Source: a virus
Lineage: Duplodnaviria; Heunggongvirae; Uroviricota; Caudoviricetes
Length of the DNA stretch: 64,000 bases
Virus record (IMG/VR): IMGVR_UViG_2671180676_000004
Location: 1-64,000 of that record
Strand: one strand, 5' to 3'
Both the position numbers and the translations under genes were made by a program. This document shows, one piece after another, positions 1-16,788 of the stretch. The notes beneath the pieces are model-generated. The model was not told the DNA's origin and ran no database searches. It saw only the letters and a program-made list of their open reading frames with translations. Every line of letters begins with the position of its first letter. Within the stretch, counting starts at the first letter, position 1.

Positions 1-125
1 ACTATTGGTGGGTAAGATCAGGGCACTCTATAAGCAAGATCCCTTTGGACGTCATGAAAAGTCTGGGAGGGTATGATCCTGCGAATGTGATCAGGAAAAA
101 AAGACCATCAAAGAAGGCTGCTTAG
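1..125 (+). CDS. 3' end of an ORF running off the left edge (partial)
   Basis: Open frame ending at TAG 123-125 (…GYDPANVIRKKRPSKKAA*); followed by hairpin H1. Confidence 0.2.
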   Translation, partial: YWWVRSGHSISKIPLDVMKSLGGYDPANVIRKKRPSKKAA

Positions 126-146
126 TTTGTTCTGGCGTCTGTAATT

Positions 147-210
147 AGCCTGCTTCTGTATATATAAATAACTACATATTAATTATTAATATACGGAAGC
201 AGGCTGTTTT
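147..210 (+). terminator. Hairpin H copy 1, intrinsic-terminator-like
   Basis: Arms 147-163 / 190-205 (agcctgcttctgtatat … atatacggaagcaggct) with one T·G wobble, AT-rich loop, then GTTTT. Confidence 0.55.
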
Positions 211-310
211 GTATCAGAGACTCCAGACCTGAACATCACTACAGAATCCACTAGAACCCCTTCCCAGACGCTTTAAAATCGATTTTATGAACCACTTTAA
301 GGAAACCAAC

Positions 311-541
311 ATGTCATACCCGACTAATGTCGTTGCGCTCGTAGAGAGCGATTTTCTGGCCCAGGCTCGTGAAATGATGAAAGATCGTGAGCAGGCTTTC
401 AACTTGTACGAATGGGCAATTAAGTGCTTGCATCTTGGCGAGCATCGCGAACTTGTTGAACAGCTTTTAGGTGAGTTGATCAATGAGGTGTTTGCCTTGA
501 ATGTTCAACTACATGGTAGAGAAAATAATCAATCACAATGA
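311..541 (+). CDS. Hypothetical small protein (76 aa)
   Basis: ATG 311 preceded by AAGGA; track ORF 287..541 trimmed to the SD-supported start. Confidence 0.45.
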   Translation: MSYPTNVVALVESDFLAQAREMMKDREQAFNLYEWAIKCLHLGEHRELVEQLLGELINEVFALNVQLHGRENNQSQ

Positions 542-1126
542 TAGATAAGTACAAACTATTCATAAAGTGAATTGTAAGTGCTAAGATCTGATAGTTTCCA
601 GTCGTAGACTGGAGACTCGACCTGATGGGTGGGGGTAAGCGTCACTGGCGTCAGGTTTAAAAAAGCTCACTACCAGCGTAGAACTGGTGCCGTTTAGGTG
701 TCGGGGAAGGGGGAACCAAAGTGAGCGGAGACAAGGGTCACTTTATGATTGTCGAGTCTGGGGTGTTTCGAGAGGTTGAATCCAGTACTCCCCTTCATAA
801 AGTGTGGGAAGATCTCGGTTCTGGGGTGCTGTCATCCATAACTTCCCAAGTCTAAGCTGGCAGTAGACTTAGACCATAACTTTTCAGGTTATGAAACGAC
901 CAGGTTGGTGAGGGATTTTTATACTCACCTCCCTGGGAGAGTATTACCTGAAAAGACAACCTCTCACTTCGTTCGAGGTGAACTTCACTCACTTCGTTCG
1001 TTCAGTTCAGGTTTATAAAAACCTGTTCTGGGAAGTAATTTGTTTATTTTAATAATTATTAACACGCACGCGTGTGCGCACGCGCGAGGAAAAAAAATCG
1101 GCGCGGCGCTTGATTCAGGAGTTTAT

Positions 1127-1720
1127 ATGACGACGAAGACACCAGCCCGATCGCAAGAAAAAACTCGCAAAAAAGCCAAAAACAAAAATTCTCCCCGCAC
1201 CAATTCCACAACGCCTGTCGTAGAGTTCAATCCCCAGCTTAAAACCGTGAAAATCTTCAGTGATGGCTCTTGCCTTAAAAATCCGGGTGGCCCGGGCGGT
1301 TACGGTATAGTTCTCCAGTATCGTGGTGAGGAACGCGAGTTCTCAGATGGTTTTCATAGCACCACCAATAACCGCATGGAGATGATGGGGGCACTTATCG
1401 GGCTGGAGCGTTTGAAATATCCATGCAACGTTATTTTGCACTCTGATAGCCAGTATCTGAAAAACGGCATGACACAGTGGATGAAATGGTGGAAACGCAA
1501 TGGATGGGTGACTTCTGACAAAAAACCGGTAAAGAATGTTGATCTGTGGAAGCGTCTGGATGAGGCTGCAAGTCGACATAATGTTCGCTGGAAGTGGGTT
1601 AAAGGTCACGCCGGGCATCGTGAAAATGAAATATGTGATCGACTCGCGAAGATCGCAGCTTTTTCCGCAGCAGATATGCCTCACAAGAAAGATATTGGTT
1701 TTGTTTACAACAAGCAGTAA
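1127..1720 (+). CDS. RNase HI-family ribonuclease with basic N-terminal extension
   Basis: Aligns by eye to E. coli RnhA; catalytic D/E/D/D positions retained ([29 protein letters not shown]); SD CAGGAG before ATG 1127. Confidence 0.85.
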
Positions 1721-1737
1721 GTAAGTGTTTACCTATC
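1718..1737. repeat. Motif B copy (taagtaagtgtttacctatc)
   Basis: Near-identical to the copy at 63701-63720. Confidence 0.5.
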
Positions 1738-1865
1738 ATTTTAAATCATGTATCTTATCGGCGTCAGGATGACAATGTGTCGGTAAGACACAGTTCCAGG
1801 ATGGAACGAGAAAGGCGGCTGGCAATCGCCAGCCGCAACTCTTTCTGACACTGGATGGAGTCCAC

Positions 1866-2360
1866 ATGGCACGTCAAACCTATTTCACTTCTGCAACTAA
1901 ACGTCCTCGTTCACTACGTCAAATTTTGGCCGAATTATTTAGCGGTCGTGTTCTGTCACGTCTTGATGAACTAGAGACTGCCGTTCGGTTGCTGAATGAA
2001 CGTTTAGATAAGCAAGCGTCAGTTGTTGCGAACGTGGGGGCGATTGTTACCTCTGGTTCTTCACGCGAAGCGAAAAGTACACGGCCTTTAGTGAAGGAGA
2101 AAAACAACAAGGACAGTTCGAATGGAAAATTTTCAAAGAAAGAGGCTGAAACCAATGGCCTACGTTCTCATTATAGTTTCACTGGCGACGGTAGCCGTTC
2201 CAGCCGGCCAGAGCCTTTTGATGCCGGGTTCATCCATCACCACACCTCCGTCGACGACAATTACCACCACTCCAGTAGAGCGTCCTGTCACTCTGGATGG
2301 GATGACGGTGGATGCGATACCTCAAGTTCATCCAGTTACTCAGGATCATGCTGTGACTAA
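1866..2360 (+). CDS. Hypothetical protein; C-terminal half may be out of frame
   Basis: N-terminal 85 aa protein-like; C-terminal part low-complexity while overlapping frame 2122..2373 encodes a TM/Thr-Pro-rich segment. Confidence 0.3.
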   Translation: MARQTYFTSATKRPRSLRQILAELFSGRVLSRLDELETAVRLLNERLDKQASVVANVGAIVTSGSSREAKSTRPLVKEKNNKDSSNGKFSKKEAETNGLRSHYSFTGDGSRSSRPEPFDAGFIHHHTSVDDNYHHSSRASCHSGWDDGGCDTSSSSSYSGSCCD

Positions 2361-2369
2361 GGCGGTTGT

Positions 2370-2567
2370 ATGAACTGGTTTTCAAATCACTTTGGAAAAA
2401 CTTGGCTGGCGATTCTGGCTTTCATAGCTCTCATGGCCGCCGGTTGGGTATCGAACATTGTAAAACTCGTTTGCTCTGGTGATCTCCAGTTTCAGGCTGG
2501 TATGACCTTGGCTCGTGTTGTTGGGATTTTTGTTTTTCCAGTCGGTTCGGTACTTGGTTATTTCTGA
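2370..2567 (+). CDS. Small membrane protein (65 aa)
   Basis: Two hydrophobic segments; ATG overlaps end of frame 2122..2373. Confidence 0.4.
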   Translation: MNWFSNHFGKTWLAILAFIALMAAGWVSNIVKLVCSGDLQFQAGMTLARVVGIFVFPVGSVLGYF

Positions 2568-2621
2568 CGGTTGTTAGTGCATATGCATTGACCGTCTTTT
2601 CGTAAGCAATTCATGTAACTA

Positions 2622-2637
2622 GAAAACAACTTGTTTT
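2622..2637 (+). promoter_or_regulatory. Motif A palindrome (gaaaacaacttgtttt)
   Basis: Perfect 7-bp inverted repeat, about 30 nt upstream of ATG 2661. Confidence 0.45.
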
Positions 2638-2660
2638 AACAAATAACAAAAGGAAAGCAC

Positions 2661-3086
2661 ATGTTAGGTTTATTCAAAAAGAAAACTCGTAAAGCTGTTA
2701 TCGAGGTCAAAAAAATGGAGAACCGAGATGCGGTTGAAGCCACCGTGTGGGGCGCGTACATGATCTCCTATGCCGATGGCACATGCGACGCAAAGGAAAT
2801 TTCCATTCTTGAGAAAACAATTGCAGCTCTGCCTGCGTTTTCTCCGTTTGCTGGTGAGATTGCCCAAATGAGCGCCAATATCCGTGCTCAATACGAAGCC
2901 TCACCGCGCCGCGCTAATGCCCAGGCTTTACGTGAGCTGGCTGATGTGGCCGGGACTAATGATGCAGTAGATGTACTGTGTCTGTGCCTTGATATTGCCG
3001 ACCAAGACGGTATTGGCGAACAAGAAGAGCTGGCCCTGAAAAAGATCGCACAGGCGCTTCAGTTGTCACTGGATGCTTATCTCTAA
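2661..3086 (+). CDS. TerB-like domain protein
   Basis: Two repeats of the h-x-ADG … E-E-L pattern (YMISYADGTCDAKEIS / CLDIADQDGIGEQEEL) typical of the TerB fold; SD AAAGGAAAG. Confidence 0.5.
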   Translation: MLGLFKKKTRKAVIEVKKMENRDAVEATVWGAYMISYADGTCDAKEISILEKTIAALPAFSPFAGEIAQMSANIRAQYEASPRRANAQALRELADVAGTNDAVDVLCLCLDIADQDGIGEQEELALKKIAQALQLSLDAYL

Positions 3087-5010: not shown

Positions 5011-5487
5011 ATGAATACAGCCCTTTCCATCATCGACGATGCCAACTCAAACACTGCTATCGACTATCGGCAGGAAATGAACGTCATCCACGAAATTGTG
5101 GCCGAGTGCGAGAAAGAGATCGCCTTCATGTATCAGGTACACGACTTCGTTTATGGCGACGAACGCCACAACATGATTAATCGCCTGCTGAGACTAAACC
5201 ATCGACCAGATGAAGATCGCTCGCGTTTAAATCGAGGTTGGTTGGATAAAGTCGATCTGGAATGGGTGAAACAGAATATTTGGGCCGAGTACTGGAGGAA
5301 GGTCACGGACATGACTAACGTTTTGCTGATCATGCCAGCTTCCCGTCGTGACGAGTGGTATGAGCAATTTATCGAGGGCAAGCAGGAAGTCATCAAAACT
5401 GACAGAACCGGCTATCAGATGAAGGTTAAAGAGTTCGTTGGTGTACCTGAGTTCAAAGTGGATACAGACATCCCTACGATGGCTTGA
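5011..5487 (+). CDS. Hypothetical protein (158 aa)
   Basis: ORF preceded by inverted repeat gcaccattaa…ttaatggtgc at 4974-5008; convergent with hsdR. Confidence 0.5.
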   Translation: MNTALSIIDDANSNTAIDYRQEMNVIHEIVAECEKEIAFMYQVHDFVYGDERHNMINRLLRLNHRPDEDRSRLNRGWLDKVDLEWVKQNIWAEYWRKVTDMTNVLLIMPASRRDEWYEQFIEGKQEVIKTDRTGYQMKVKEFVGVPEFKVDTDIPTMA

Positions 5488-5545: not shown

Positions 5546-8500
5546 CTATATCTGCCCACCTACTCCTTTGAACTTTTCAATAAACGTGACGATTTTCTGG
5601 AAAACCGTCTGTTTTTTCGTTTTATATTGCGGGTTTAACGGACTAAGTTTTGGTAATGTCTCGTTTAATTCTGTGCCATTTTCGGTGGCGTATTCGCGTT
5701 TTAAAGACGTGCGAATATAGCGTTTCGCCGCCTCTTCATTGAGATTTTCTTCTTTAATCAACGCTTCTGCTTCACGTAGCTGTTCGTGTTGAGCAAAGGT
5801 AAAGAACGCGTCAATGATGCTGGCTTTGTCTGGTAAATCATCCAGGTTCGTTTGCTGAATAAAATCGACCACCAGGCCCTCTTTAGCACGGTTCCCTAGG
5901 CTTGAACGAATTAAGCGTTTGACCTCTTCGATCATTTCGCCCTTGCCTTTATTTTGTCTGTTGTGTTCGAAAATCAGTCCAAGGATATAATCCAGGTTTA
6001 TTTCCTGAGACTTCAGCAAATCGACCTCAAAAACTACGTCATCCCAGTCAGTGGTTGATTTCTCTTTTTTCTCAGCTTCTTTCTCACGGCGCTGCCAGTC
6101 GCGAATATCGTTATAGGCAGAACGATAATCCTGAATCTTGCGATCAGCAGGGAGACGAATTGTTTGCAATTCAGCGAACTTTTCATCATCCACATAATGT
6201 TCTGCTTTGAATTTTTCTACCGCAACAGGATCGCTAAGATCGATTTGTTGCAGGGCTTTTAGCGTGGCAAATTCATCATAGTTTTGCAGGATGTTCTCGG
6301 CACGCAGGTATTCGCCAAACAGTTTAACGAAGTCTTTCTTCTCTTTTTCACTTTCAATACTGGCAGGGTCAGGGAACCGTTGTTCCAGTTCTGAAACTAC
6401 TGCCATAAAGCCGCGTTTAGCTTCACCTGTAGCAGCATCAGTAAAGCCTTCCATATACTCTGCATAACTCTTTTCTAACACTACATTTTTGGTGTTTTTG
6501 TCACCAAACAGCGTTATGGCATCGATGGTTGAGCGTTCCAGATCGCGGAAAGTGACGATATTACCGAAGGTTTTAGTCGCGTCATAAATGCGGTTGGTAC
6601 GGGAAAATGCCTGCATCAGGCCGTGAAAACGCAAGTTTTTATCGACGAATAGCGTGTTTAATGTTGGAGCATCGAAGCCGGTTAAAAACATCCCCACGAC
6701 GATTAACAAGTCAACATCCTGATTTTTAACCCGCTGAGCCAGGTCCCGATAGTAGTTCTGAAAACCCTTGCTATCAGTGCTGAAATTCATTTGAAAATGG
6801 TCGTTATACTCACGAATTGCAGCGTCCAGAAACTCTTTAGCACTGCTGTCCATTGCACTGGTATCAAAAGATTCATCGGATATTTCACCAATGGCATTTT
6901 GTTCTTCATTAGCGGCAAAGGAGAAGATTGTCGCAACACGCAGTGGTTTATAGGTAGCAGATTTATTAGCTGCTTCCTCTTGTAACCGTTTAAACGTCGC
7001 GTAATAGGCTTTCGCGGCATCCACGCTGCTCACTGCCAACATAGCATTAAAACCTTTTGAGCCAGGGAAGGTACGGTGGGTTTTCTGGCGGAAATTATTC
7101 AGAATATATTGCGTGATTTCCTGAATACGCATGGGATGAAGAAACGCCTGCTGATTTTCAGCCGCACTCAGTTTTTTCTCGTCAGTTTCTGTCTCTAAAG
7201 ACTTAAACTGTGGCCGCACATCGTTGTAGTCCACCTTGAATTTGAGCACTTTTTCGTCACGAATCGCATCGGTAATTACATACGAATGCAATTCACGACC
7301 AAATACGCTGGCGGTTGTTTCTGAGCCTAAGGCGTTTTCCGGGAAAATAGGGGTGCCGGTAAAACCAAACTGATAATAACGTTTGAATTTCTTCTTCAGG
7401 TTTTTCTGCGCTTCTCCAAACTGGCTGCGGTGGCATTCATCAAATATAAACACCACTTGCTGATTATATACAGGCAGGTCGCTTTCTGCTTTCATCAGGT
7501 TATTGAGTTTCTGAATAGTAGTGACGATAATTTTGTTATCGTCCTTATCCAGATTTCGTTTAAGGCCTGCGGTATTTTCCGAGCCGTTGACGCTGTCTGG
7601 CGAAAAACGCTGATATTCCTTCATGGTCTGGTAATCGAGGTCTTTCCTGTCGACCACAAAGAAGACTTTATCAATAAAGTCCAGCTCTGTTGCCAGACGC
7701 GCGGCTTTAAAGCTGGTGAGGGTTTTACCAGAACCGGTAGTGTGCCAGATATACCCACCGCTTTCCGGTTTTGACCAGTTCTTCGCTGTAAAGGAACTCT
7801 TAATTTTCCACAGAATGCGCTCGGTGGCGGCAATCTGGTACGGTCGCATCACCAGTAGCGTCTGACTACTGTCAAAAACGCTGTAGTTCACCAGAACATT
7901 CAGCAGAGTATGTTTCTGGAAAAAGGTAGCGGTAAAGTCTTTGAGGTCTTTAATCAGCGTGTTGTCTGATTTCGCCCAATTCATGGTGAAGTCAAAACTG
8001 TTTTTATCGCGCTTTGTGGTGTTGGCAAAATAACGGGTATCAGTGCCGTTGGAAATGACGAACAGCTGCAGATACTTAAACAGGGAATTTTCGCTGTTAA
8101 AACTCTCTTTACTGTAACGATGTATCTGGTTGAAAGCCTCACGAATCGCCACCCCGCGTTTTTTTAGTTCGATTTGCACCAGCGGTAAACCATTAACCAG
8201 GATCGTGACGTCATAACGGTTAGCATGAGAACCCGTCTGTTCAAACTGCTGGATAATCTGCACCTTATTGCGCATGAGATTCTTTTTATCTATCAAATAG
8301 ATGTTCTCAAGTCGCCCGTCGTCAAAAATAAAGTCGCAGATATAGTCGATATGGATTTTACGGGTTTTATCCAGAATACCATCGCTGGGGTTGTCCAGAT
8401 ACTGCTCCGTGAAGCGCCGCCACTCGCTGTCATTAAACATCACACCATTGAGGCTCTGAAGCTGTTCCCGAACATTGGACAGCATTGCCGACTGTGATTT

Positions 8501-8662
8501 TACGGAAATAAATTCATAACCCTGATTCCGCAGGTCCTGAATCAGTTCACGTTCCAGGTCCGATTCGCTCTGGTAGCTGTCGCTTGTTTGCTCAGCTTTG
8601 ATGTACTTATCAAGGACGATAAAGTTATTGGATTCAGCAATGGTGTGTGTTTGATGAGTCAT
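5546..8662 (-). CDS. hsdR: Type I restriction enzyme R subunit
   Basis: 1038 aa; SF2 motifs TGSGKT and DECH ([10 protein letters not shown]); directly downstream of hsdM-hsdS. Confidence 0.9.
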
Positions 8663-8784
8663 AGCGCATCCTTTGTGCCGCCTGGCAAGAGCCGGAAGGG
8701 CGTTAAGAGTGACTTCCGGCGCGTAAAAAAATAGTCTATATACTGACCGGGTGTTAAGGTGGCCCGATCGGTAGCAATGGTCAA

Positions 8785-10023
8785 TTAATTACTGACAGTT
8801 TCAGGTTTCGGGAAACTGAACAGTAAATCACGGTAGTATTCGTATTGTTTCTGGCGCAACTCGATTTCACGCGGGAGACCTTCGGTGATGGAGTTGGTCA
8901 GGGTGTCGAATTTATCGAGCAGAGCAGATATTCGCTCTTGTTTCTGTTTATCAGGCAATGGCACTGGTAATGTTTTTATAATATCTGCATTCAAGTTACT
9001 GACCGACCCGCTATTGATTTTACTTTCCCAATAATTTTTCACCTTTTTTGATGAAAGATAGTGATACAGATAATCAGCATTTAATTTTTCACCAAAATTG
9101 CTGATTGATGCCCATCCATCATGGATAGCTCCGGTTATCCTTAAAATATATGGTCTGCCAAAGCTCATAGAGTTAGAAATGACGAAATCACCGGGGTTCA
9201 AGATTCGCGATTTTTGGGCACCCTCTGCAGTTATTTTTTGTAAGGTTTTGTCAATGTATTTAGAGCCGGGGATAGTATCTCCGATTTTAATCCATGGGAT
9301 ACCATTTCCTTGTTCAGTAAGATAATTAACAATTGGCCTGGGGGATGCCCCACGTTGTATTTTGGCTACTTCTCCCAATGCCTTCCACTCAACCTCACCC
9401 TCTTTAAAACTCAGCAACTGGTCGCGATAGTAGTTGTACTGTTTTTTACGCATGTTAAGCTCAGCGGTAAGCTCAGCGGTAAGTGCAGTAAACTTATCCA
9501 GAATCCGAACAATTTCAGACTGGATGGCAAGGGATTTTCCCGGGGCGCTGGGACAAGGGATGGGTATTTGATAGTTTAAAATTGCATCTTTACTGCCTCG
9601 AGGCATCTTTGCCCCTTTAGCGTGCTGCATACTGTAAGAAAAAAATGAATCCGACGATAATGCATAGTAGAGATATTCTGGACTAATAATTTTTTTACAG
9701 TCTGCTAAAATGCGTATAGCAAGGACATCACCACTGCACCCGCCATTATTCTCCGCCATCCAAACTTTCTTTAAATATGGGCGAATATTACCTAAAAGAA
9801 TATCACCTGGCTCATAGGCAGTTAAACGTGCCGTATTAGGCTGATAGGTGGCGTCAATGCGACCGCCTTTATCAGCAAGGAGATTATCAACGCCAACGAA
9901 TGAAGTGGCATCAAGTTTATCAGCATCAACTTTGGTTGTTGAATACCCGGCGATATCGCCCACTGCTTTCCACTCAACCTCAACCCCATCCAGCAATTTT
10001 TCCAGATAACTCAACTCGCTCAT
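8785..10023 (-). CDS. hsdS: Type I restriction-modification specificity subunit
   Basis: 412 aa with two target-recognition halves, each ending in a conserved coiled spacer (…[16 protein letters not shown] / …[16 protein letters not shown]); overlaps hsdM by 4 nt. Confidence 0.85.
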
Positions 10024-11582
10024 TTCTGCACCTCGCAGCCTTCAATTTCAGCCACAATCGCATCAATATCTTTACGCAACTGGTCGATTTTGCTGACCGT
10101 GGTTTTCAGCTCTGCATTCAACTCAGCGATATCGATAATTTCGCGAGTATCTTTCACTTCAACATAGCTGCTCACCGACAGGTTATAGTCATTAGCAACA
10201 ACAGTCTCAAACGCAACAGATTTCGCCAGATGAGCAACATCTTCCTTGCTGGCAAATACCTGCATAATTTTTTCTATATGGGCATCGGTCAGAATGTTGT
10301 TGTTAGTCTCTTTTTTGAACAGTTCGCTGGCATCAATAAACTGAACTTTGGTATCCGTTTTATGTTTAGACAGCACCAGAATATTGACGGCAATGGTGGT
10401 GCCAAAGAACAGGTTCGGTGCCAGTGAAATCACGGTTTCGACATAGTTATTGTCAACCAGATACTGACGGATTTTCTGCTCCGCGCCGCCACGGTAAAAA
10501 ATGCCCGGGAAGCAGACAATCGCAGCACGACCTTTGGCAGAAAGATAGTTCAGCGCATGTAATACAAACGCAAAGTCAGCTTTGGATTTGGGGGCCAGAA
10601 CGCCAGCCGGGGCAAAACGTTCATCGTTAATCAGCGTCGGGTCATCGCTGCCAATCCATTTCACCGAATACGGCGGGTTAGAAACGATGGCATCAAACGG
10701 TTTTTCATCTCTGAAGTGCGGCTCAGTCAGCGTATTGCCCAGCTTGATATCAAACTTGTCGTAGTTGATGTTGTGCAAAAACATGTTCATACGCGCCAGG
10801 TTATAGGTCGTATGGTTGATCTCCTGACCGAAAAAGCCTTCTTCGATGATGTGGTCATCGAACTGCTTTTTCGCCTGCAACAACAGCGAACCGGAACCTG
10901 CTGCCGGGTCGTAGATTTTGTTAACGTGGGTCTGGCCGTGCATTGCCAATTGTGCAATCAGCTTAGAGACGTGCTGCGGTGTAAAGAACTCGCCGCCTGA
11001 CTTACCAGCATTCGCGGCATAGTTAGAAATCAGGAACTCATAGGCATCGCCGAACAGGTCAATCTGATGTTCGTTGAAGTCACCAAGTTTTAACCCTTCA
11101 ACCCCTTTCAGAACCGCAGCCAGGCGGGCATTTTTATCTTTAACGGTGTTACCCAGGCGGTTACTGGTGGTATCGAAATCAGCAAACAAACCTTTGATGT
11201 CAGCTTCTGAAGGATAACCGTAAGCAGAACTTTCGATAGCAACGAAGATGCTGTTTAAATCTGCGTTCAGTCTGTCATTGGTATTTGCTTTCGCCGCTAC
11301 GTTGCAGAAAAGCTGACTGGGGTAGATGAAGTAGCCTTTAGTTTTGATGGCATCGTCTTTAATGTCATCAGTAATTACGCTGTCATCCAGTTTCGCATAA
11401 CAGATACTGTCATCACCGGCTTCAATATAGCTGGAAAAATTTTCGCTGATAAAACGGTAGAAAAGTGCGCCCAGAACGTATTGCTTAAAATCCCATCCAT
11501 CGACCGAACCCCTGACATCGTTAGCAATTTGCCAGATTTGACGATGAAGCTCTGCACGTTGTTGAATACTTGTCATTTTCAT
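10020..11582 (-). CDS. hsdM: Type I N6-adenine DNA methyltransferase subunit
   Basis: 520 aa; SAM motif [10 protein letters not shown] and catalytic NPPYS. Confidence 0.9.
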
Positions 11583-13496: not shown

Positions 13497-14597
13497 TCAC
13501 ACTGCGCGGAATGCGATCTCGCCAGGTATTACTTCGCCTTGCCAATACATTTGGGCAGCAACGCGATCTGCGAGGTCACGATAAATAGCCGTAAATTCGC
13601 TATCTGGACGACTAATAACGGTTGGTGTTCCGTTATCCAGATCTTCACGAAGAGAGATATGAAGTGGCATTTGGCCTAACAACTGCGTGTTGTATTTCTC
13701 GGCCAGTTTCTGTGCGCCACCGGTGCCAAAAATTGGCTCGTGATGACCGCAGTTACTGCAAATATGCACACTCATGTTTTCGACGATACCCAGTACCGGC
13801 ACTTCGACTTTTTCGAACATCACAATGCCTTTCTTCGCATCGATCAGCGCGATGTCTTGCGGCGTAGTTACCACAACCGCACCAGTTACAGGAATGTTCT
13901 GCGCCAGCGTCAACTGAATATCACCAGTGCCCGGCGGCATATCGAGAACGAGATAGTCCAGATCAGGCCATAGAGTTTCCTGCAACATCTGCATCAGCGC
14001 CTTGCTGGCCATCGGTCCACGCCACACCATTGCATTGTCGTCGGTGACCAGATAACCAATAGAGTTGGTTGCCAGGCCATGAGACATGATAGGTGCCATG
14101 TGAGTACCGTCCGGTGAGGTTGGACGTTGGTTTTCCGCGCCCAGCATGGTTGGAATTGATGGACCATAGATATCGGCATCCAAAATACCAACTTTCGCAC
14201 CTTCAGCAGCCAACGCCAGTGCCAGGTTTACCGCCGTGGAGGATTTACCCACGCCGCCCTTGCCTGAGCTGACGGCGATAATGTTCTTAACGCCATTAAT
14301 GCCTGGTTGGTTTTTGACGCGCTTAAGCGTGGCAATGTTGTACGACAGCTTCCAGTCAATAGCCTTTGCGCCAGTGATACGGAGCAGATCACCACTACAT
14401 TGCTCTTTCAGGTCTTCAAAAGGCTTATTCCACACGAAAGGCATGATTAGTTCGACATGCAGTGTGTCATCCATCAACGCAACATGGTGTAACGCTTTAA
14501 GCGTAGTCAGGTTGTGTTTCAGGGTTGGGTGCTGAAAATTAGCCAGCGTACCGGCTACCATTGCTCTCAGGGCATCCGGCGATTTGGACTCGCTCAT
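13497..14597 (-). CDS. apbC: Fe-S cluster carrier ATPase Mrp/ApbC
   Basis: 366 aa; P-loop SSGKGGVGKSST; MinD/Mrp family; divergent from metG as in E. coli. Confidence 0.95.
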   Translation of the reverse strand: MSESKSPDALRAMVAGTLANFQHPTLKHNLTTLKALHHVALMDDTLHVELIMPFVWNKPFEDLKEQCSGDLLRITGAKAIDWKLSYNIATLKRVKNQPGINGVKNIIAVSSGKGGVGKSSTAVNLALALAAEGAKVGILDADIYGPSIPTMLGAENQRPTSPDGTHMAPIMSHGLATNSIGYLVTDDNAMVWRGPMASKALMQMLQETLWPDLDYLVLDMPPGTGDIQLTLAQNIPVTGAVVVTTPQDIALIDAKKGIVMFEKVEVPVLGIVENMSVHICSNCGHHEPIFGTGGAQKLAEKYNTQLLGQMPLHISLREDLDNGTPTVISRPDSEFTAIYRDLADRVAAQMYWQGEVIPGEIAFRAV

Positions 14598-14754: not shown

Positions 14755-16788
14755 ATGACCCAAGTCGCGAAGAAAATTCTGGTGACGTGCGCGCTGCCGT
14801 ACGCTAACGGCTCAATCCACCTCGGCCATATGCTGGAGCACATCCAGGCTGATGTCTGGGTTCGTTACCAGCGAATGCGCGGCCACGAGGTTAATTTCAT
14901 CTGTGCCGACGATGCCCACGGTACGCCGATCATGCTGAAAGCACAGCAGCTTGGTATCACACCGGAGCAGATGATTGGCGAAATGAGTCAGGAACACCAG
15001 ACTGATTTCGCAGGCTTTAACATCAGCTATGACAACTATCACTCGACGCACAGCGAAGAGAACCGTCAGTTGTCTGAGCTTATCTATACTCGCCTGAAAG
15101 AGAACGGTTTTATTAAAAACCGCACTATCTCTCAGTTGTACGACCCGGAAAAAGGCATGTTCCTGCCGGATCGTTTTGTAAAAGGCACCTGCCCGAAATG
15201 TAAAGCGCCAGATCAATACGGCGATAACTGTGAAGTCTGCGGCGCAACATATAGCCCGACTGAATTGATCGAGCCGAAATCGGTGGTTTCTGGCGCTACC
15301 CCGGTAATGCGTGATTCCGAACACTTCTTCTTTGATCTACCTTCTTTCAGCGAAATGTTGCAGGCATGGACCCGCAGCGGCGCGTTGCAGGAGCAGGTGG
15401 CGAACAAAATGCAGGAATGGTTTGAATCCGGCCTGCAACAGTGGGATATATCCCGCGATGCGCCTTACTTCGGTTTTGAAATTCCGAACGCGCCGGGCAA
15501 ATATTTCTACGTCTGGCTGGACGCGCCGATTGGCTACATGGGTTCCTTCAAGAATCTGTGCGACAAGCGCGGCGATACCACCAGCTTCGATGAATACTGG
15601 AAGAAAGACTCCACCGCCGAGCTGTACCACTTCATCGGTAAAGATATTGTTTACTTCCACAGCCTGTTCTGGCCTGCCATGCTGGAAGGCAGCAACTTCC
15701 GCAAGCCGACCAACCTGTTTGTTCATGGCTATGTGACGGTGAACGGCGCGAAGATGTCCAAGTCTCGCGGCACCTTTATTAAAGCCAGCACCTGGCTGAA
15801 TCATTTTGACGCTGACAGCCTGCGTTACTACTACACTGCGAAACTCTCTTCGCGTATTGATGATATCGATCTCAACCTGGAGGATTTCGTTCAGCGTGTG
15901 AATGCCGATATCGTTAACAAAGTGGTTAACCTGGCGTCCCGTAACGCTGGCTTTATCAATAAGCGTTTTGACGGTGTGCTGGCAGGCGAACTGGCTGACC
16001 CGCAACTGTATAAAACCTTCACTGATGCTGCTGAAGTGATTGGTGAAGCATGGGAAAGCCGCGAATTTGGTAAAGCTATCCGTGAAATCATGGCATTGGC
16101 TGACCTGGCTAACCGCTATGTCGATGAACAGGCTCCGTGGGTGGTGGCGAAGCAGGAAGGACGCGATGCCGATCTGCAGGCGATTTGCTCTATGGGCATT
16201 AACCTGTTCCGCGTGCTGATGACGTACCTGAAGCCGGTACTGCCGAAACTGACTGAACGTGCAGAAGCATTCCTGAATACAGAACTGACCTGGGATGGTA
16301 TCCAGCAACCGCTGCTGGGCCATAAAGTGAATCCGTTCAAGGCACTGTATAACCGCATCGATATGAAGCAGGTTGAAGCACTGGTGGAAGCATCCAAAGA
16401 AGAAGTGAAAGCCACAGCCGCACCGGTAACTGGCCCACTGGCTGACGACCCGATTCAGGAAACTATCACCTTTGACGACTTCGCCAAAGTTGACCTGCGC
16501 GTGGCGCTGATTGAAAACGCAGAGTTTGTAGAAGGTTCTGACAAACTGCTTCGCCTGACGCTGGATCTCGGTGGTGAAAAGCGTAATGTCTTCTCAGGCA
16601 TCCGTTCCGCTTATCCAGATCCACAGGCACTGATTGGTCGTCACACCATTATGGTGGCTAACCTGGCACCACGTAAAATGCGCTTCGGTATCTCTGAAGG
16701 CATGGTGATGGCTGCTGGCCCCGGCGGGAAAGATATCTTCCTGTTAAGCCCGGATGCTGGTGCTAAACCTGGCCACCAGGTTAAGTAA
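14755..16788 (+). CDS. metG: Methionyl-tRNA synthetase
   Basis: 677 aa from [11 protein letters not shown]; class I HIGH (HLGH) and KMSKS motifs; zinc knuckle CPKC…CEVCG; C-terminal tRNA-binding domain. Confidence 0.97.

Follow-up and report, generated by a model that had tools for sequence, protein, structure and literature searches.

A tailed RNase HI of SSU5/pHCM2-type phage-plasmids and a likely structured RNA upstream of its gene

Introduction

Several described systems bear on the locus considered here. In other RNases H1 a hybrid-binding domain followed by a basic linker supplies affinity for the substrate; in plasmid ColE1 the ~550-nt RNA II is cleaved by RNase H at an A-rich site; and alternating CG/CA tracts, which negative supercoiling converts to Z-DNA, are hotspots of deletion in E. 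coli. The closest described relatives are the RNase H genes of Salmonella phage SSU5 (SSU5_090, whose annotation uses an upstream start and gives 254 residues) and of the S. Typhi plasmid pHCM2 (product WP_011011108.1). We describe here a locus of this type in an SSU5/pHCM2-type phage-plasmid of Escherichia coli, contained in a 64,000-nucleotide stretch of viral DNA (IMG/VR record IMGVR_UViG_2671180676_000004, positions 1 to 64,000; hereafter the window), in which an RNase HI gene (rnhA) with a basic N-terminal tail follows an alternating purine-pyrimidine tract and, upstream of that, a region that likely encodes a structured RNA. An initial annotation of the sequence had singled out the gene as an element-borne RNase HI paralogue and the tract as a Z-DNA-prone segment in its promoter or leader.

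The gene is a known and ordinary RNase HI, and it is not a new observation because it is already annotated in RefSeq and in phage SSU5. In itself it is of little weight, and it is the RNA upstream of it that merits a study of its own.

Results

A second, element-borne RNase HI

The open reading frame (ORF) called mechanically spans 1040–1720, and the true start of rnhA is the ATG at 1127, which is preceded by a Shine-Dalgarno sequence (Table 1) whose GGAG is retained in relatives. RefSeq has a coding sequence at the same place in a 100%-identical plasmid (594 bp, rnhA, WP_053271996.1, 'ribonuclease HI'). Forms of RNase HI with 215–226 residues exist in databases, and longer N-termini beginning at TTG 1040 or GTG 1073 were considered and ruled out, as the A-run at 1090–1097 changes in length by non-multiples of three; it ranges from 5 to 9 nt among near-identical relatives, and for that reason the frame upstream of 1127 is not conserved. 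We also note that this variation among near-identical E. coli relatives suggests homopolymer slippage. An internal start at GTG 1247 (V41) was likewise rejected: the codon is GTG in this lineage only and GTA in relatives, so that there is no conserved internal start, and the frame upstream of it is kept, with in-frame indels. The product matches PHROG 531, the Pfam family RNase_H (PF00075; E = 1.6e-44 over residues 40–178, 151.9 bits against a cutoff of 25.8) and the NCBIfam equivalog for RNase HI (NF001236; 219.9 bits against a cutoff of 160).

Residues 38–180 align with residues 2–143 of E. coli RNase HI (E about 1e-62) with an amino-acid identity of 60.6%, in agreement with the PDB alignment. 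The initial annotation had all four catalytic acidic residues in place, and they are: D46, E85, D107 and D171 correspond to D10, E48, D70 and D134 of the E. coli enzyme, with H161 corresponding to H124, and the acidic tetrad and the histidine are invariant across a 17-sequence alignment. The segment forming the basic protrusion, or handle, is kept as well. In an AlphaFold (AF2) model the core has predicted local distance difference test (pLDDT) values above 90, and the best Foldseek matches are to E. coli RNase HI (E = 2e-24, root-mean-square deviation 1.2–2.0 Å, target TM-score 0.90–0.96). The domain score, the DEDD residues with their histidine, and the fold with its basic protrusion are thus all three as in type 1 RNases H, and the protein is an E. 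coli-type (type 1) RNase H that, to judge from these features, is almost certainly active. Compared with pHCM2, the 143 codons of the core include 11 amino-acid differences and 65 that differ only synonymously, and at the codon level the core is evidently under strong purifying selection.

That the gene is a second copy is confirmed by its location on a plasmid and by alignment to the chromosomal rnhA: of 5426 complete E. coli genomes, 5425 have that gene, with ~68% nucleotide identity to the plasmid core, and 226 contain the plasmid form. The opposite case, in which this would be the sole rnhA and syntenic in related strains, is excluded by the same count. The word paralogue is loose, however. 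The nearest proteins outside the phage-plasmid clade are ordinary gammaproteobacterial RnhA sequences with only ~61–62% identity, and the gene is therefore an old acquisition rather than a recent duplicate, better described as an old xenologue fixed in the SSU5/pHCM2 lineage.

The N-terminal tail had been described as a Lys/Arg/Thr/Pro-rich extension of 45 residues lacking in the host enzyme. Its composition is as described (K, R, T and P make up 23 of the first 45 residues), and it is a real feature, conserved in the family alignment and without counterpart in host RnhA, but its length was overstated: the extension relative to E. coli RnhA is 37 residues, and residue 46 is already the first catalytic aspartate. 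In every lineage the tail begins with MTTKTPAR or a near variant, continues with a basic polar linker that varies in sequence and carries in-frame indels of 3–5 codons among lineages, and ends with a conserved TPVVEFNPQ lead-in to strand 1, with the net charge staying between +6 and +8 throughout. Relative to pHCM2 there are 14 amino-acid changes and 10 synonymous-only codons among the 37, with a third-position bias that is present and weaker than in the core; from the substitution patterns of tail and core we conclude that the tail is translated and loosely constrained. Residues 1–30 have pLDDT values of 45–54 and no secondary structure in the AF2 model, and are predicted to be disordered. 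Homologues with 65–70% identity (P0090, P0099 and P0101) also have K-rich tails, followed by an F[DN]P[NQK]LKT lead-in, and clustering at 50% collapses the entire tailed clade to one representative. Other RNases HI bear different N-terminal additions, including hybrid-binding domains followed by basic linkers; the Pfam search of this protein found no hybrid-binding domain (PF01693), with RNase_H alone matching, and the protein is not of the hybrid-binding-domain RNase H1 type. A possible clamp-binding motif in NPQLKTV was ruled out by eye, the Klebsiella lineage having R and F in place of Q and L. A literature search for tailed phage RNases HI returned nothing relevant. The tail would be a disordered polycationic arm that adds non-specific affinity for nucleic acid.

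A more distant lineage (loci L080–L083) is organized differently, in that a second RNase_H-like ORF of 171–178 residues (Pfam E = 1.8e-06) precedes and overlaps that for the K-tailed RNase HI, as at 5477–6558 of L082. It apparently lacks catalytic residues (by eye, D10 is replaced by S and E48 by I). Upstream of it is a non-coding gap of ~710 nt that is GC-rich and looks structured, in which nhmmer found no sequence similarity to the RNA of the window (L082 lineage).

A likely structured RNA upstream of rnhA

The candidate RNA (Table 1) lies within the 585-bp gap between an ORF of 77 codons and rnhA, with the alternating tract in its 3' flank. Its identity is 95.2% with pHCM2, 90.4% with a Klebsiella variicola plasmid and 82.7% with the most divergent lineage, L084, and it is more conserved than the flanking genes; in the comparison with pHCM2 the third codon positions of rnhA differ at 50%, whereas the RNA is ~5% diverged and its differences have no 3-nt periodicity. 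In the consensus fold, which comprises 121 pairs, 99.1% of cells are paired and 8 of the pairs show compensatory double changes, compared with 2.9 ± 1.1 in shuffles and 0–1 in slid controls, in a homologue set of limited diversity. The + strand folds with an energy of -163.9 kcal/mol (z = -4.4) as against -138.6 kcal/mol for the other strand, and the many G-U pairs likewise indicate the + strand. In all lineages the 5' hairpin is preceded, at constant spacing, by a TGnTA..AT element, although the surrounding sequence has diverged. A match to the extended -10 consensus makes this element the likely promoter.

There is also evidence of expression. In phage Cyrano the only annotated feature within this region is CYRAN_81, a 44-codon ORF that was reported as a moron expressed 12-fold above its local background in an LF82/Cyrano lysogen, with 117 fragments per kilobase per million (fpkm) in LB in RNA-seq whose reads may come from either strand, and with its highest level in bacteria six hours inside macrophages (log2 10.3) (PMC9928086). 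The region is thus ~14-fold above rnhA (8.4 fpkm) in LF82 lysogens. CYRAN_81 was considered as a protein gene and ruled out, as it is frameshifted in L084 and its substitutions lack 3-nt periodicity. In the same study CYRAN_43, a 'hypothetical protein' of phage Cyrano (OV696614.1) that was not located in the window, is 723-fold above local background in lysogens and far above every other Cyrano gene (PMC9928086); it may be another mis-annotated RNA.

The RNA appears to be confined to SSU5-like elements in the collections scanned. A scan of IMG/VR gave 66 loci, all with at least 88% identity, and a scan of GTDB for divergent homologues gave just two SSU5-like Kluyvera contigs and one chance match of 22 nt. 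No Rfam family reached its gathering score in the whole window, and matches with E up to 5 in segments 400–2000 of the window and 4500–5600 of L082 were noise only. Searching the plasmid with nhmmer revealed no second copy, and antisense targets sought within the plasmid amounted to 10–15 nt matches at chance level. We found no description of this RNA in the literature, our search coverage being incomplete. We are fairly confident that it is real, functional and representative of a new class of RNA; as far as conservation, covariation and the expression of CYRAN_81 indicate, it would be an undescribed and autonomously expressed RNA specific to SSU5-type phage-plasmids.

The alternating tract

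The sequence ACACGCACGCGTGTGCGCACGCGCG at 1062–1086 is a perfect purine-pyrimidine alternation, as the initial annotation had claimed, situated 2 nt to the left of where it had been placed (1064–1088). No other run of this kind in the window exceeds 15 nt, and the length of 25 nt equals the maximum of 200 Markov simulations, the longest run expected in shuffled or Markov sequence being ~16. It occurs once in the window, which rules it out as a repeated operator. A tract of 14–28 nt built from CG, CA, TG and TA steps throughout is present in 73 of 73 related loci, which is more than chance, followed in each case by an A-run of 5 to 9 nt; length variants of 8–12 nt occur among relatives. Given that silent sites in rnhA differ at ~50% between lineages, the tract is evidently maintained, though plastic. 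With 25 nt of GC-rich purine-pyrimidine alternation it exceeds the 12 bp that we took as the minimum for a Z-DNA-forming sequence, and formation of Z-DNA is physically possible by that measure.

The tract is also self-complementary. Folding predictions have its 3' half paired to TCG(N)CGCGGCGC across an A-rich loop, and nearly all of the 34 distinct leaders have a minimum-free-energy fold with a GC hairpin of this kind. The alternative hairpin CGCGTG-NNNN-CACGCG is common to the E. coli, Salmonella and Klebsiella types, which differ in the loop alone. A canonical terminator does not fit the larger hairpin: its loop is at least 10 nt, the sequence that follows is UUGAUUC, and a terminator scan made no call. 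A promoter scan found no sigma-70-like promoter on the + strand, and of the two locations first proposed for the tract, promoter or leader, the leader, or a spacer, therefore fits better. The tract, which lies outside the protein-coding sequence, would act as a GC spacer, self-complementary and prone to slippage, that separates rnhA from a strongly expressed RNA upstream, and it is the left junction at which rnhA was swapped for other cargo.

The cargo slot and expression of rnhA

In several relatives the position of rnhA is taken by other genes. The slot holds JukA/JukB in L007 (K. pneumoniae pJX9-2), a GmrSD/HEC-06 type IV restriction enzyme in L008 (S. Tennessee), betT in L009 (E. hormaechei), and two ORFs of no assigned function in L089 (Kluyvera sichuanensis), which are on the minus strand and encode proteins of 269 residues with CxxC motifs and of 200 residues with a membrane segment. 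The last ~70 nt of rnhA remain in L089, showing that rnhA is ancestral in the slot and that the other cargos are later replacements. Three independent cargo replacements start in or just after the A-run, near 1096–1100, and the left junctions of the L008 and L009 cargos have ~35 nt in common just after the junction. The slot, corresponding to ~1096–1651 of the window, is a hotspot for cargo and defence genes. In RNA-seq of LF82/Cyrano lysogens the RNase H gene CYRAN_82 is at 8.4 fpkm, which is background and similar to its neighbours (PMC9928086, S1 Table), and which is consistent with repression of the gene during lysogeny and its use in the lytic cycle.

The element and other features of the window

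Bases 21–3000 of the window are 100% identical to E. coli plasmid pUTAK-6-1 (NZ_CP157149.1, 111 kb) and match 240 E. coli records, nearly all of them located on plasmids. Phage matches to the region are PhiR41_1, CMS-2020a and Cyrano, with 96.6–97.1% identity, and Salmonella phage SSU5, with 77%. PLSDB contains 691 matching plasmids, including 310 from Klebsiella, 200 from Escherichia, 87 from Enterobacter and 49 from Salmonella, and 681 of the 691 are non-mobilizable; pHCM2 belongs to the same group. RepB, ParB, terminase, portal, capsid and tail genes are all on the same replicon. From these plasmid and phage matches and this set of genes we conclude that the window is part of an SSU5/pHCM2-type phage-plasmid of E. 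coli, a group that we recognize by co-linear similarity, the combination of phage structural genes with plasmid replication and partition genes, a size of ~110 kb and lack of mobilizability, all of which are seen here. The replicon also encodes DnaE (the alpha subunit of polymerase III), a theta subunit, an epsilon-like 3'-5' exonuclease, a DnaB-like helicase, a FEN-type 5'-3' exonuclease, DNA ligase, RecA, NrdAB and ThyA. The RepB-type initiator lies ~17 kb from the tract and rnhA, and the order of methylase, 77-codon ORF, ~590-bp gap and rnhA is kept among relatives.

Other features of the window lie downstream. The spacer at 1762–1865, between rnhA and the ORF at 1866..2360, contains three GGA motifs of the AGGAUG(G)A type, the last of which overlaps the ribosome-binding site of that ORF, together with a weak CsrB-like Rfam match (E = 0.043) and a bidirectional terminator-like hairpin at 1815–1836; control of ORF 1866..2360 by CsrA is possible. 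The variable region that contains rnhA also has, 4 kb further downstream, a complete type I restriction-modification system. According to the RefSeq annotation of the identical plasmid, the segment 12721–16788 contains host-like housekeeping genes (Table 1), and also a DNA polymerase III theta subunit and an S24 peptidase.

Table 1. Coordinates of features of the rnhA locus and of other genes in the window.
Feature	Position	Strand	Basis
rnhA, RNase HI, 197 aa	1127..1720 (stop codon included)	+	ORF, Pfam, NCBIfam, RefSeq coding sequence
Shine-Dalgarno AGGAG, 5 nt before ATG	1117..1121	+	read from sequence
N-terminal basic tail coding region, residues 1-37	1127..1237	+	family alignment, charge, pLDDT
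Catalytic core, residues 38-180, with D46, E85, D107, H161, D171 and Trp/Lys-rich basic protrusion	1238..1666	+	alignment to E. coli RNase HI
Extended -10 element TGcTAAGAT, likely promoter of structured RNA	579..587	+	consensus match
Likely structured non-coding RNA, ~430-445 nt	594..1038	+	conservation, covariation, fold energy, expression
5' hairpin of structured RNA	594-616	+	at least 7 different sequences among lineages, all pairing
25-nt direct repeats in structured RNA	start 963 and 988	+	three copies in Cronobacter L002
Closing helix of structured RNA, 3' strand	~1028-1035	+	predicted fold
Perfect alternating purine-pyrimidine tract, 25 nt, CG/CA/TG steps	1062..1086	.	longest-run statistics, 73 loci
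Predicted GC-rich hairpin, 3' half of tract pairing with TCGGCGCGGCGC, loop holding A8 run (1090-1097)	1076..1109	+	minimum-free-energy folds
Smaller predicted hairpin	1062-1075	+	RNA fold
Alternative 6-bp hairpin CGCGTG-TGCG-CACGCG	1069-1084	+	by eye
Type I restriction-modification system, complete	5546-11582	-	hsdR 5546-8662, hsdS 8785-10023, hsdM 10020-11582
apbC	13497-14597	-	RefSeq annotation of identical plasmid
metG, full-length methionine-tRNA ligase	~14755-16788	+	RefSeq annotation of identical plasmid

Discussion

We have described here a tailed RNase HI that is encoded by phage-plasmids in addition to the single chromosomal enzyme of the host, together with a likely structured RNA immediately upstream of its gene. 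On balance we lean towards a role for the enzyme as a helper in the lytic cycle, removing primers or R-loops alongside the DnaE-type replication genes of the element. RNase HI completes the lagging-strand maturation set on the replicon, and a role in removal of primers or R-loops is plausible from the gene content. The non-essential enzyme would be expressed during the lytic cycle and would degrade the RNA of Okazaki primers and R-loops, after which the FEN-type exonuclease and the ligase would complete the lagging strand, such that the element's RNase HI supplements the lone host enzyme during high-copy replication. In the leader, the probable role of the hairpins around the poly(A) loop is to insulate rnhA from upstream transcription or to attenuate that transcription, or else to cap the rnhA mRNA.

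Several observations do not sit easily with this interpretation. The rnhA region is covered by at least 80% in 603 of 703 matching plasmids and is missing or replaced in about one in seven, so that rnhA is dispensable; it is not required for maintenance and perhaps not for lytic growth. The 5'-3' exonuclease is frameshifted in the identical reference plasmid, and defence genes occupy the same slot in relatives, which would suit an accessory or counter-defence role. As to the leader, UUGAUUC is a poor terminator tail, the terminator scan made no call there, and relatives that lack rnhA also lack the 3' arm of the hairpin, yet can have a full-length tract, as in L089. The function of the tract may thus lie with the upstream RNA or with recombination, and not with rnhA.

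A different account of the tract is that it acts as DNA, forming Z-DNA or a cruciform that tunes a weak promoter in the AT-rich segment 1040–1061 by supercoiling, or serving as a hotspot for recombination and deletion at a module boundary, or both. Perfect alternation over 25 nt is kept at 14–28 nt despite sequence change (28 nt in the 82%-identical L084, for example), the tract directly follows AT-rich hexamers resembling -10 elements, and the length variants and the three independent cargo junctions at or just after the tract are what might be expected from the behaviour of alternating CG/CA tracts in E. coli noted above. The + strand lacks a called sigma-70-like promoter, however, and alternation arises automatically from CG/CA slippage and from GC palindromes, so its retention need not mean selection for Z-DNA. 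We regard this account as unlikely, and favour a transcribed leader or spacer.

The content of the slot raises a second alternative, that RNase HI is accessory cargo with a counter-defence function and not a general replication enzyme, shielding the infecting element by destroying, for example, RNA/DNA hybrids or msDNA-like intermediates produced by defences of the host or of rival elements, or R-loops at the invading DNA. The systems found in its place are suggestive (JukA/JukB, GmrSD/HEC-06 and the two-gene cassette of L089), as are the restriction-modification system 4 kb downstream, the dispensability of rnhA, and the methyltransferase gene just upstream, a typical anti-restriction early gene. 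Set against these, defence cargo is usually expressed in lysogens and rnhA is at background; the rnhA remnant in L089 makes rnhA the ancestral occupant and the other cargo later; no PADLOC model matches rnhA; the core is that of a conventional housekeeping-type RNase HI with 60% identity to the E. coli enzyme; and no target is known for such a role. We think this quite improbable, and retain the lytic helper function as the preferred reading for the enzyme.

It is tempting to see a single switch made up of the RNA, the tailed RNase HI and the alternating tract with the poly(A) hairpin. The RNA would be the lysogenic product, and RNase HI would gate or process its read-through, or an R-loop formed by it, at the tract, triggering lytic replication or expression of downstream early genes. 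We give such functional coupling little credence. Least probable of all is a ColE1-type RNA-primed origin, in which the structured, G-rich RNA forms a persistent hybrid near the tract and A-run and RNase HI cuts the primer for lytic or plasmid replication, such that RNA, tract and rnhA would act as a unit: a structured RNA of ~430 nt with G-runs does end just before a GC-rich tract and A-run with rnhA directly after, in keeping with the size and cleavage of RNA II, but loss of rnhA in some relatives has left the RNA and tract in place, lysogens with a silent rnhA have the RNA in abundance, the plasmid replicon has a RepB-type initiator ~17 kb away, and host RNase HI is available in any case.

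SSU5-type phage-plasmids are found in ~4% of complete E. coli genomes and are common in Klebsiella, and they carry a near-complete lagging-strand kit that includes RNase HI, even though rnhA is expendable and lies in a cargo hotspot where anti-phage systems can be found. The polycationic tail, a conserved disordered addition to a textbook enzyme, is a case that could be tested at little cost. The RNA is under far stronger constraint than the flanking genes and is expressed in lysogens, yet it is annotated as a spurious 44-codon ORF alone; it could prove to be a new RNA, regulatory or structural in function, in a family of mobile elements that is widespread in the clinic.

Comparison with described systems places the locus as follows. 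As in the priming of ColE1 by RNA II and RNase H, a long structured RNA lies beside RNase H activity and an A-run follows a GC-rich segment, but here the RNA and rnhA are separable in evolution and oppositely expressed, and a RepB initiator is located elsewhere, so the similarity is a resemblance only. The tract is like the Z-DNA-forming (CG)n/(CA)n inserts studied in E. coli plasmids in being perfectly alternating and GC-rich over 25 nt, a likeness by sequence alone, and differs from them in being natural, in mixing CG, CA and TG steps, and in being self-complementary as well. The RNases H1 with hybrid-binding domains (eukaryotic RNase H1, Bacillus halodurans RNase H1 and the metagenomic proteins P0196, P0208, P0237 and P0255) also have a basic segment before the catalytic domain, although the tail described here has neither the folded domain nor its conserved aromatic residues. 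With E. coli RNase HI (RnhA; PDB 1RNH/2RN2) the phage-plasmid enzyme shares its fold, the DEDD residues, the equivalent of His124 and the basic protrusion; it differs in having a basic, disordered extension of 37 residues at the N-terminus, an additional Gly in the GGPGG loop and a C-terminus that extends further, and in that this copy is borne by a plasmid and phage and is silent in lysogens. The RNases H of SSU5 (SSU5_090) and pHCM2 (WP_011011108.1) are its orthologues, encoded in a syntenic position downstream of the corresponding tract and RNA and having tails of the same organization; the pHCM2 locus differs in an 8-nt deletion in the tract, in the middle of the tail, which is divergent in sequence and by 4 codons in length, and at 11 of 143 residues of the core.

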